Source: Gracilinanus agilis
Lineage: Eukaryota
DNA: 64,000 nt
NCBI RefSeq assembly: GCF_016433145.1
Contig: NC_058131.1
Span: forward strand, 583,183,999 to 583,247,998
Direction of reading: 5' to 3'
The translations under genes and the position numbers were made by a program. Below are positions 5,086 to 27,719 of this stretch, in pieces. The notes under the pieces are model-generated. The model did not search any database and was not told where the DNA came from. It worked only from the letters and a program-made list of their open reading frames with translations. How positions within the stretch are numbered: the stretch's first letter is position 1; every line of letters starts with the position of its first letter.

Positions 5086-5811
5086 TAAACGAATTATAGA
5101 CTCTAGAGTTAAAAGGAACCTTGGGGATCATTGTGTCCCAACCCTTCTGCTTTACCAGTGAGGAACCTAAAGCTCAGGGAGAATGACTGACTCATCAACA
5201 CAAAATAAACAAACCAGAATTCAAATCCAGGTTCTTTCATTCCAAATACAGGGCTCTTTTCACTTCCCAAAACACTCAAAATGAGGAAAACCAGGTTAAC
5301 TGGGGACTGAAAACTCTTGGAGTTTGAGGGAAAGACCCACCTGAGGGCCAAAACCTCATGAATCTGAAGCCAGAGAATATGTAGGTAGGTCAGAAAATGG
5401 AACAGCAACTAACATCAAATAGTTACACTGAATTAGGCAGCCAATTACTGCCTTGGGAAGTCTGCTGGTTGAGGAGTCACTCAGATAACTTTATGGCTTT
5501 TCTTTTCCCTCGAGAAATCCACCTGCTCAACTCCACAGGCTAGTCTAAAATACTGGGAAGTTAAGAGAGTTTAAGGAAGAGAATGGCCTGGGTTCAGTGC
5601 TTGGCCTCTGAGCTTCTTGACCTTCTTAGTAAGAAGCATGGACAGGAGCCACTGGAGGCAAAACATGCAACCAGCATTTCTGTCTCTCCACCAAAGCAAT
5701 CCTGAATGAGAGAACAGGCACTTCTTAGTAGGAGAATAAGAAAAGGCAACCTCAAAAGGAAATTACTCTCCTCTTTCCCATAGAGTGATTGATCTATGTC
5801 CCATTTCCTAC

Positions 5812-6122
5812 TGTTATGTAGAGATGGCAGCATGGAATCCCTGCAAAATACAGGGTCAGCCTCACCCAGAATTCCAGGGGACCCCCCCCTGGAGAACTTT
5901 GGGTGAGGGGGCAGTTGAGAGGGAGTTAAGACAGTTGCTTTCTGGGGGTTGAGGTGAGGGGATCACTGCTTACTGCTCCTGACTTGGGGGTTCACCTGAG
6001 TTGGTTTTTTTCTCAACTGCCCCCTCACCCAAAAGTTCTCCAGGGGGGGGGGTCCCCTGGAATTCTGGGTGAGGCTGACCCTGTATTTTGCAGGGATTCC
6101 TTGTTGCCATCTCTACATAACA
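5812..6122. mobile_element. Fold-back element with ~110-bp inverted arms, TGT...ACA termini and 4-bp TSD (CTAC); family unassigned
   Basis: Arms 5812-5920 and 6011-6122 differ by 2 substitutions and 2 homopolymer-length changes. CTAC at 5808-5811 and 6123-6126. Confidence 0.85.
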
Positions 6123-6499
6123 CTACTCCTTCCAGATTGGAAACCTTCTGTACTGTGAGGTAAGTGAGAGTATAATATAGAGGGAGAAAGCAATGAATGA
6201 ATACAGAGGGAAAGGGTCTGATGCTGCTACTTAAAAGATGTTAGACAAGTCATTTCTTCCTTCCAGGTTTCAGTTTCCTCTTCTATAAAATGAAGAATTT
6301 GAACTGAATGATTTCAAAAGTTCTTTCTAGTACTAGCTTTAAAAAAAAACCAATCTTAATTATTTTAAGTTTTTTTTCAATTTTAAGCTATTAAAAAAAA
6401 AAAAAACAACCTTAACTCTTAGTGTTAACTCTAAAACAGAAAAGCAGCTAGGAATTAGGGTTAAATAATTTGCCTAGGGATATACAGCCATAGCAGTAG

Positions 6500-9042: not shown

Positions 9043-9372
9043 TCTTGGTGGCAGACCTATGGCATGCATGCCAGAGGGGGCACCCAGAGTCCTCTCTGTG
9101 GACACATGCACCGTCGCCCCAACAGAGTTTCCTTCTAGAAAGCCAAAGGGACAGGGGGACAGGCGGCTCTCCTCTCCCTCTCTATGCATACTGTTATGTA
9201 GAGTTGGAAGCTTGGAATCCCTGCAAAATACAGGGACAGTCTCACCCACACCTGGAATTCTGGGTGAGGCTGTCACTGTATTTTGCAGGGATTCCATGCT
9301 TCCAACTCTACATAACAACACCTGGGGACATTTCTCACATCATCCATGCCTCTAAGAGGTTCACCATCACTG
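9043..9372 (+). mobile_element. hAT MITE (CAGTGATGG-type TIR) carrying a nested fold-back element
   Basis: Perfect 8-bp TSD TCCTAGGG (9035-9042, 9373-9380). Right TIR aggttcaccatcactg. Related to 63606-63955. Confidence 0.85.
9192..9317. mobile_element. Short 126-bp copy of the TGT...ACA fold-back element (57-bp arms, 12-nt loop)
   Basis: Arms 9192-9248 and 9261-9317 with 3 mismatches. Flanks ATAC/ACAC. Confidence 0.85.
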
Positions 9373-26752: not shown

Positions 26753-27048
26753 TTTTTTTTTTTAAACCCTTATCTTCCATCTTGGAGTCAATACTGTGTA
26801 TTTCAACTGGTCTCTCCAAGACCTGTGATACTACCCTGTGGTTTAGACTCCTCATGGAAAATAAACATACTTTGTGGATTGCTCTCCAAGCAAAACTCCA
26901 AGGCAGAAGAGTGGTAAGGGCTAGGCAATGGGGGCCAAGTGACTTGCCCAGGGTCACACAGCTGGGAAGTGTCTGAGACCAGATTTGAACCCAGGACCTC
27001 CTATCTCTAGGCCTGGCTCTCAAGCCACTGAGCCACCCAGCTGCCCCC
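26753..27048 (-). mobile_element. SINE1_Mdo-type SINE containing a 98-bp non-SINE insertion
   Basis: TSD ttgagggacttt. SINE sequence is interrupted at 26801-26898. Confidence 0.9.
26801..26898 (-). repeat. Inverted copy of 27577-27674 (97/98 identical)
   Basis: Direct reverse-complement alignment. Also visible as a shared peptide in ORFs 26703-27080(-) and 27554-27823(+). Confidence 0.95.
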
Positions 27049-27719
27049 TTGAGGGACTTTTGACAAAGAATGCTTTCCACCTCCAGAGAAAAACTGTTGG
27101 AGTAGAAATAAAGATGAAAACATATGATTTATCACTTGTTTGTTTGGGTATATGTTTTGATGTTTTGGTTTTATAAGATTATTCACTTACAAAAATGAAT
27201 GTATAACCCAGATTGAATTACTAGTCAGCTCCAGGAGAAAGGAAGAAGGGAAGGAGACAATATGGAAAGCTTATGTGGAGATTTGTTATTAAAATTTTTT
27301 TAATTTTTTAAAAATAGTTTCTGAACAAGTTTTTCTTGCATATTGGAGGGGGCTTTAAAATCCCAAGACTGTGAGATCACAGAATCTAGCTTTATGGCAC
27401 AGGAAGATTTTCTAAACAGCAAGCCCTTTGGAATTTACTTCTTGTTTTTAGAGAAAGATTTACCTTATGCTGTAAGCTCCTTGGGGTGAAAAAAAGAGGA
27501 AAGGTCGCATAGCTCCTGTGCAGTTCTAATCAGAGAACAAAGACAAGAGTTTCTTGGCCGGTGCTAGTCTGATGAAGAGTTTTGCTTGGAGAGCAGTCCA
27601 CAAAGTATGTTTATTTTCCATGAGGAGTCTAAACCACAGGGTAGTATCACAGGTCTTGGAGAGACCAGTTGAAAGAAGATTCTTCAAAATGTCAAAGGGC
27701 TGTCACAATAACAACAGTC

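Follow-up and report, generated by a model that had tools for sequence, protein, structure and literature searches.

We analysed a 64,000-nucleotide stretch of the Gracilinanus agilis genome (hereafter, the window), in which positions 5812-6122 are occupied by a 311-bp element that starts TGTTATGT and ends ACATAACA. A sequence-only reading had described it as a fold-back mobile element with inverted arms distinguished by two substitutions and two homopolymer-length differences. Realignment and folding bore this structure out: the aligned arms (1-109 against 1-112) show 2 substitutions, plus 2 gap openings at homopolymers, and the palindrome folds with z = -24.5, with 0 of 100 shuffles folding equally well. 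The CTAC copies noted on both sides are also present. The 90-bp "spacer" between the arms proved not to be a separate sequence; instead, it is made up of the LTR, which runs on to position 190, and a filler of 8 nt, TGGTTTTT. The features are as follows.

5808..5811, no strand: left target-site duplication (TSD), CTAC, which fits the CTVB target consensus of XMRV/MLV as given in the accessible part of PMC2857682
5812..6001, plus strand: LTR positions 1-190, the start of U3 with the TGTTATGT end; 5812-5920 pairs with the right arm
5860..5907, plus strand: intrinsic U3 hairpin, LTR ~49-97, the family's fold-back hot spot; the focal copy switches elsewhere
6002..6009, plus strand: junction filler TGGTTTTT, 8 nt, candidate source LTR ~213-220
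6010..6122, minus strand: inverted copy of LTR ~110 to 1, a second U3 end replacing U5, from sequence comparison with the LTR
6123..6126, no strand: right TSD, CTAC, direct rather than inverted, matching the left copy
9192..9317, plus strand: second, independent U3-U3 fold-back of the same family (locus L031), 126 bp, arms of 57 and 67 nt, different subtype

The flanks of the focal element are non-coding and SINE-rich, and no gene-like ORF is evident in the window, which holds four stop-free frames of at least 150 aa. The second fold-back lies only 3 kb from the focal element and has the flanks ATAC/ACAC, a one-mismatch 4-bp TSD. Elsewhere in the window, a 98-bp piece inside a young SINE (26801-26898) matches, inverted and at 99% identity, the DNA 678 bp downstream (27577-27674), which looks like a locally templated inverted insertion.

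A search of the species' own genome with the focal element returned 3283 candidates, 40 of which were scored. The 30 loci returned comprise 3 full fold-backs and 27 one-sided loci (L004-L030) that match only LTR positions 1-190, with 94-97% identity between 5812..6001 and their 5' 190 bp. Most of the one-sided loci continue as a repeat of ~860-895 bp ending ACATAACA, and such repeats either have 4-bp TSDs at their borders or run on into a primer-binding-like stretch and internal sequence. Pfam analysis of the internal stop-to-stop frames yielded Gag_p30 (weak, below the Pfam cut-off), RVT_1, RNase_H, Integrase_H2C2, rve, and MLVIN_C. The best match of the RT is MMLV RT (E 8e-45, versus 1e-21 for foamy), and the best PDB match of the IN is foamy IN, while Pfam gives MLVIN_C. 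By these predicted domains, the parent is a class I, gamma-like (MLV-like) ERV with an LTR of ~870 bp, placed as gamma-like only, from pairwise matches of RT and IN and from Pfam. Thus, the long copies with the same end that were sought following the sequence-only reading do exist, as LTRs followed by MLV-type gag-pro-RT-RNaseH-IN, with a polypurine tract (PPT) preceding the 3' LTRs.

With regard to the ends of the provirus, in 20 of 30 IN-anchored loci a PPT is followed by a spacer of 5-7 nt, usually with ATTAC as its end, and then by a forward LTR, and loci L006, L020, and L093 are likewise 3' LTRs preceded by a PPT. No inverted U3 was present within 1.5 kb downstream of IN in any of these 30 loci. 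We also considered a family devoid of 3' LTRs, none having appeared in the extended internal copies or in 40 U5-anchored loci (taken in list order from 76 U5-motif matches, most already-sampled loci being skipped); the 20 forward LTRs rule this out. In 4 of the 40 U5-anchored loci, GTTT is followed by a TGG-starting, primer-binding-like stretch, a putative site of the tRNA-Arg type. The spacers outside the family's ends are long, at 5-7 nt between PPT and U3 (L006, L020, L093, and L216-L245) and 4 nt between U5 and PBS (L146, L158, L180, and L182), and a short palindrome lies directly before the PPT. Three solo LTRs that lack an exact TSD (L070, L098, and L165) are followed by GTTT, the same as the U5 spacer. 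In addition, L004 has an internal deletion: its 5' LTR and ~300 bp of leader are followed by no more than the final ~45 bp of an LTR, and it has a 4-bp TSD.

Given this LTR parentage and the junction map, the focal element consists of U3 1-190, the 8-nt filler, and inverted U3 ~110-1, and therefore both of its ends are U3. Parent copies read GTGGTTTTTACTCAG at LTR ~213-220, from which the filler TGGTTTTT was probably copied by an extra template hop. A 29-mer across the focal junction has a single genome-wide match at ≤1 mismatch. Neutral substitution proceeds at 2-3 per 10^9 sites per year, and the 2 differences over 109 arm positions would then suggest a rough age of a few million years for the insertion. 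We conclude, with a probability of roughly 85%, that the focal element arose at or near integration as a U3-U3 fold-back of a class I MLV-like ERV. This supports one of the two options offered by the sequence-only reading, in which a retroviral integrase acts on a folded-back ERV1-type LTR end.

To assess how common such structures are, we used an exact 20-mer from LTR 24-43 as a census probe, which has 763 matches in the genome and 0 in the control. The first 100 matches listed correspond to 83 loci on contig C1, and these were sorted by inspection into 35 U3-U3 fold-backs (one without its left end), 35 full LTRs, and 13 copies otherwise truncated at the 3' side. Inverted motif pairs within 4 kb numbered 16, all head-to-head. 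Since fold-backs with two long arms match twice, and the exact motif occurs in only 22 of 38 LTRs, the counts were corrected by hand, giving a fold-back share of 32-39%, i.e., about a third of U3-anchored insertions. Extrapolation at 83 loci per 100 matches suggests 200-300 fold-backs among the exact-motif loci. When the 126-bp copy served as the query, 34 of the 40 places scored were palindromes, although such a query selects for that size. Hence, the locus is not one of a set of one-sided LTR ends only, as might have been the case; recurrent palindromes with 4-bp TSDs are abundant.

Fold-backs range in size from 74 bp to 5.5 kb. The shorter arm is never longer than ~200 nt, whereas the longer one extends to as much as 5.5 kb, and the long examples (L057, L066, and L136) include LTR, leader, gag, and some of pol ahead of the inverted end. 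Other aberrant copies were also seen in the family. U3 stubs of 65-630 bp (L073, L080, L084, L106, and L109) are flanked by a 4-bp duplication and end in a 4-8-nt terminal-like remnant or at an internal site. The truncated copy L131 has a 30-bp host duplication and L091 one of ~15 bp, like one-ended aberrant integrations. L029 and L060 carry short internal LTR inversions (about 199-240 and 280-303), which suggests several strand switches in one event.

The fold-backs are one-sided. None of the 40 fetched U5-anchored loci is a U5-U5 fold-back (38 have a full U3 end and 2 are left-truncated), and the exact matches of two U5 motifs, 76 and 53 in number, include no inverted pair; the imbalance between U3-U3 and U5-U5 has a Fisher p of 6.5e-8. 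In an unrelated control ERV of the same genome, inverted pairs were found at 0 of 99 loci, versus 16 of 83 for the focal family (p = 1.5e-6), and none of 10 fetched control loci is a fold-back. In the control copies seen, the spacers at both the PPT and PBS sides are 2 nt long. A separate 4-kb TG...CA insert, which interrupts a solo LTR (L011/L179) and has a CCAT duplication, ends in a control-family LTR on one side and lacks a direct repeat on the other.

A related LTR family, B, with solo LTRs of ~900 bp and 227 exact motif matches genome-wide, also folds back. It shows 5 inverted pairs in 95 loci and 2 more fold-backs among 10 fetched singles, with a recurrent 134-137-bp class, 4-bp TSDs, and several subtypes (loci L183:864-998, at G000:C2 ~347.154 Mb, and L184-L205). 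The start of U3 folds at -8 to -16 kcal/mol in family B, versus -11 to -14 kcal/mol in control copies, which are not fold-backs. Family B thus folds back with a U3 fold no better than that of the control, and therefore hairpin energy alone is insufficient to explain which families produce fold-backs.

Within the focal family, LTR 1-100 folds as DNA at -22.6 kcal/mol, versus -1 to -14 kcal/mol for other 100-nt windows. The hairpin at LTR 49-97 is the strongest fold of the LTR, and many junctions lie in or at it. In five copies (143-147 bp), the switch falls at the hairpin stem and the overlap is 6-10 nt, yet these copies belong to different LTR subtypes, so that this class reads as repeated self-priming and not as copying of one master. 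The 51 mapped junctions vary, and 18 of them have at least 5 unassigned or re-templated bases. The two arms of one element are of the same LTR subtype, 3.9% apart versus 11.2% for random ends, while different fold-backs represent at least 10 recurring LTR subtypes. A tree of LTR ends (112 nt), in which 5 of 52 branches are well supported and the 16 arms need 11 label changes, weakly indicates that the arms are scattered and nothing beyond that. The tree, the subtype counts, and the 3.9% and 11.2% rates come from an alignment with a few mis-oriented rows and over-long arms. The fold-backs arose independently many times. Accordingly, the description of the focal copy as a "mobile element" does not hold in the sense of a self-amplifying family, as its junction is single in the genome and fold-backs formed separately in many LTR subtypes.

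The TSDs carry the mark of an integrase. Among 57 fold-backs (excluding L092, which has lost its left end), 40 have exact 4-bp TSDs, 4 have exact 5-bp TSDs, 11 have one mismatch, and 2 have none. The corresponding figures for 34 U5-anchored solo LTRs are 20, 5, 6, and 3. At the 40 exact fold-back sites, the frequency of T at position 1 is 0.05 and that of A at position 4 is 0.10, with T at -3 and A at +3. The accessible part of PMC2857682 reports that XMRV/MLV target sites avoid T as the first TSD base and A as the fourth, and reports the consensus CTVB. The fold-back target bias resembles that of XMRV/MLV at positions 1 and 4. The match of the 20 solo sites is partial: A at position 4 is 0, but T at position 1 is 0.3.

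We dated the second arm from 97 LTR ends and 55 arm pairs, leaving out L038 (because of a later insertion) and arms shorter than 18 nt. At three thresholds, 4, 7, and 10 rare alleles were common to both arms, versus 23, 40, and 67 found in one arm, and this split was compared with a uniform post-insertion origin (p = 0.03, 0.004, and 4e-5, respectively). The rate of rare alleles per arm is about equal to the solo LTR rate, and arm-arm divergence is 99/2083 (4.8%), versus 4.3-4.6% between nearest solo neighbours. Given the one-arm alleles and an arm divergence near that of the neighbours, the second arm dates from about the time of insertion.

Further information comes from the PPT-U3 spacer, which is absent from a chromosomal solo or 5' LTR. 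Both of the fold-backs without a TSD (L061 and L072) keep 5-6 nt of this spacer at one end; L114 keeps 5 nt and L054 keeps 4 nt, both of which can also be read as one-mismatch TSDs. The calculated p of 2e-6 for spacer retention is too low, because L114 and L054 are ambiguous and the target sites are rich in TAC. The retained spacer points to unprocessed viral DNA as the template.

The copies display their parent family, U3 at either end, TSDs of the integrase type, one-sidedness, a hot spot at the hairpin, and independent origins. On this basis, we favour, as the probable mechanism, a plus-strand fold-back during reverse transcription, its conversion to a double-ended palindrome, and concerted integration of the two U3 ends. 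In the first step, PPT-primed plus-strand DNA would stall or be displaced and re-prime on plus-sense U3, often at the 49-97 hairpin, and then copy back to its own start. In the second and least certain step, the hairpin would become duplex and acquire its two U3 ends, the simplest route being another priming event at the PPT with strand displacement; our literature search found no paper on PPT re-priming. In the third, integrase would process both U3 ends and join them 4 bp apart. Later central deletions may widen the variety of junctions, and the products appear to be dead on arrival. The evidence for this mechanism consists of genomic fossils throughout. Regarding self-priming itself, minus-strand strong-stop DNA primes on itself at a hairpin in vitro, according to the available text of PMC6088434. 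Several observations count against the favoured mechanism: a simple fold-back gives a one-ended hairpin, leaving the second end as an inference; the focal copy has a filler and switches away from the hairpin; filler-type junctions (18 of 51) also fit host repair; 4-10 rare alleles are common to both arms; ordinary aberrant insertions with one end also occur in the family (L131, where 30 bp of host DNA is duplicated); and family B folds back with a U3 start that folds no better than the control's.

Host repair could contribute more directly if integrase joined one U3 end and a host polymerase then extended the truncated free end on the inverted U3 strand, producing a second U3 end that was subsequently joined. 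The fillers and microhomologies at fold-back junctions and the one-ended insertions L131 and L091 fit such a course, and the part of PMC5041404 available describes free 3' ends of HIV/ASLV DNA that can copy either viral strand with several template hops. However, an end joined by recombination usually gives long duplications or deletions, yet 44 of 57 fold-backs have exact 4-5-bp TSDs, and the restriction to U3-only products is left without a reason; we regard this explanation as unlikely. Exact TSDs, unequal arms, and fillers would all be accounted for if two separate U3-ended DNAs from one particle (hairpins or broken cDNAs) were integrated in concert and the capped break was end-joined in the middle of the element. 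Both arm differences of the focal copy (L001) do recur in other copies, but its two right-arm variants occur together in only 1 other row. Moreover, the arms of an element share one subtype, as described above, and the recurrent 143-147-bp class has the exact geometry of self-priming at the hairpin stem, which makes a two-molecule origin rather improbable. A switch on the chromosome is more doubtful still: a replication fork in a solo LTR or provirus would change strands and return at the 8-bp terminal inverted repeat, so that inverted U3 replaced U5 and the old TSD was kept. The TSD and the target profile would then be retained as a matter of course, the site could be biased by the U3 hairpin, and a few rare alleles are indeed common to both arms. 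Nevertheless, it is opposed by the lack of U5-U5 forms (0 of 40), by the control ERV (0 in 99 pairs and 0 of 10 fetched loci), by the mutation split, which favours formation at or near insertion, and by the viral PPT-U3 spacer kept in the TSD-less copies.

The other option of the sequence-only reading, a Ginger-like MITE, would make the fold-backs a Ginger-type or other family multiplying by cut-and-paste. Outwardly, TGTTA ends, arms of 40-200 bp, and 4-bp TSDs fit the description in the accessible text of PMC2836005, and size classes do recur (143-147 bp here and 134-137 bp in family B). That option nonetheless fell away, and we consider it very improbable: the Ginger signatures CCGG, CCGT, and TATA occur in none of the 40 exact 4-bp TSDs, no Ginger transposase partner was found, the long relatives encode RT and gag, the focal junction is single in the genome at ≤1 mismatch, and copies of the same size carry different LTR subtypes in both arms. 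Fold-back chimeras are a known artefact, and the focal junction is absent from the read-contig pieces listed. In run X1, which is possibly the assembly's own sample, a unique-flank contig enters the focal element by 25 letters (bridging needs 31), and the right flank is without cover; the reads of runs X2 and X3 (organism B) leave the locus uncovered. Even so, an assembly or library chimera can be practically discounted, as the flanks are direct, not inverted, and carry TSDs, the arms differ by ~5%, the right arm of L038 holds a later TG...CA insertion of ~1 kb with its own CTAC duplication, and the X1 read contigs contain four other arm-to-arm junctions at a depth of 22-32, versus 30 in unique flank. 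The same contigs show 67 different flanks at the U3 end.

Retroviral integration is usually regarded as a faithful process that requires a U3 end and a U5 end, aberrant products being rare and without clean TSDs. In this natural family, roughly one germline insertion in three is a clean U3-U3 palindrome, which extrapolates to some 200-300 loci, and these palindromes preserve, as fossils, a probable error of reverse transcription whose hot spot can be mapped. They also offer a one-step route from LTR to TIR and have seeded hundreds of near-palindromes of 100-300 bp in the genome. For annotation, it follows that mammalian TG...CA palindromes with 4-bp TSDs can be LTR fold-backs and not MITEs or Ginger elements. 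More speculatively, and in our view with odds well below even, fold-back could be a regular second replication output of this ERV clade, in which re-primed DNA with two U3 ends is cleanly inserted by integrase. If so, an LTR element would become a TIR-bounded TG...CA element with a 4-bp TSD in one step, up to kilobases long and with viral genes. It would then stand in, as a living model, for the intermediate that is missing between LTR elements and TIR transposons of the Ginger type, and would also be a source of apparent mammalian "MITEs" that never transposed as DNA. The ingredients of fold-back formation are already known. The literature searched, in which coverage of subscription papers and supplements was slight, yielded no description of U3-U3 fold-back ERV insertions; judging from these genomic copies, the class at such frequency would be newly described here, in two related families, as a major product.

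Compared with known systems, the fold-backs share with class I ERV solo LTRs and proviruses the same LTR sequence, TG...CA ends, and mostly 4-bp TSDs, but their right end is inverted U3 and not U5, and therefore they have no direct repeat to recombine; they also span 74 bp to 5.5 kb. The aberrant HIV/ASLV proviruses covered in the available part of PMC5041404 likewise have one normal end; the other is truncated, with template hops, and attached to viral DNA that may run either way. These proviruses usually lack a normal short TSD and needed drugs or mutants, whereas the fold-backs mostly have exact TSDs, are U3-U3 without exception, and account for about a third of the germline insertions. The supplements of that paper list provirus structures and may bear on the U3-U3 class. 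Self-primed minus-strand strong-stop DNA, as the accessible text of PMC6088434 presents it, similarly folds at an LTR hairpin while nascent and copies itself; there, however, the R/U5 minus strand is involved and the product is a dead end in vitro, suppressed by nucleocapsid, whereas in the fold-backs the U3 side is involved and the product reached the chromosome. Finally, Ginger1, Ginger2, and their MITEs have TGTNR ends, TIRs of 40-270 bp, and a 4-bp TSD, according to the part of PMC2836005 available, and the focal element has TGTNR termini and TIRs within the Ginger1 range. The same source gives CCGG or CCGT/ACGG as the Ginger1 TSD and RTATAY as the Ginger2 target, and it proposes that Ginger1 TIRs derive from two LTRs in opposite orientation. 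The fold-backs differ from Ginger in lacking this target bias, a Ginger transposase, and amplification of one structure, and their TIRs are made afresh from the LTR.
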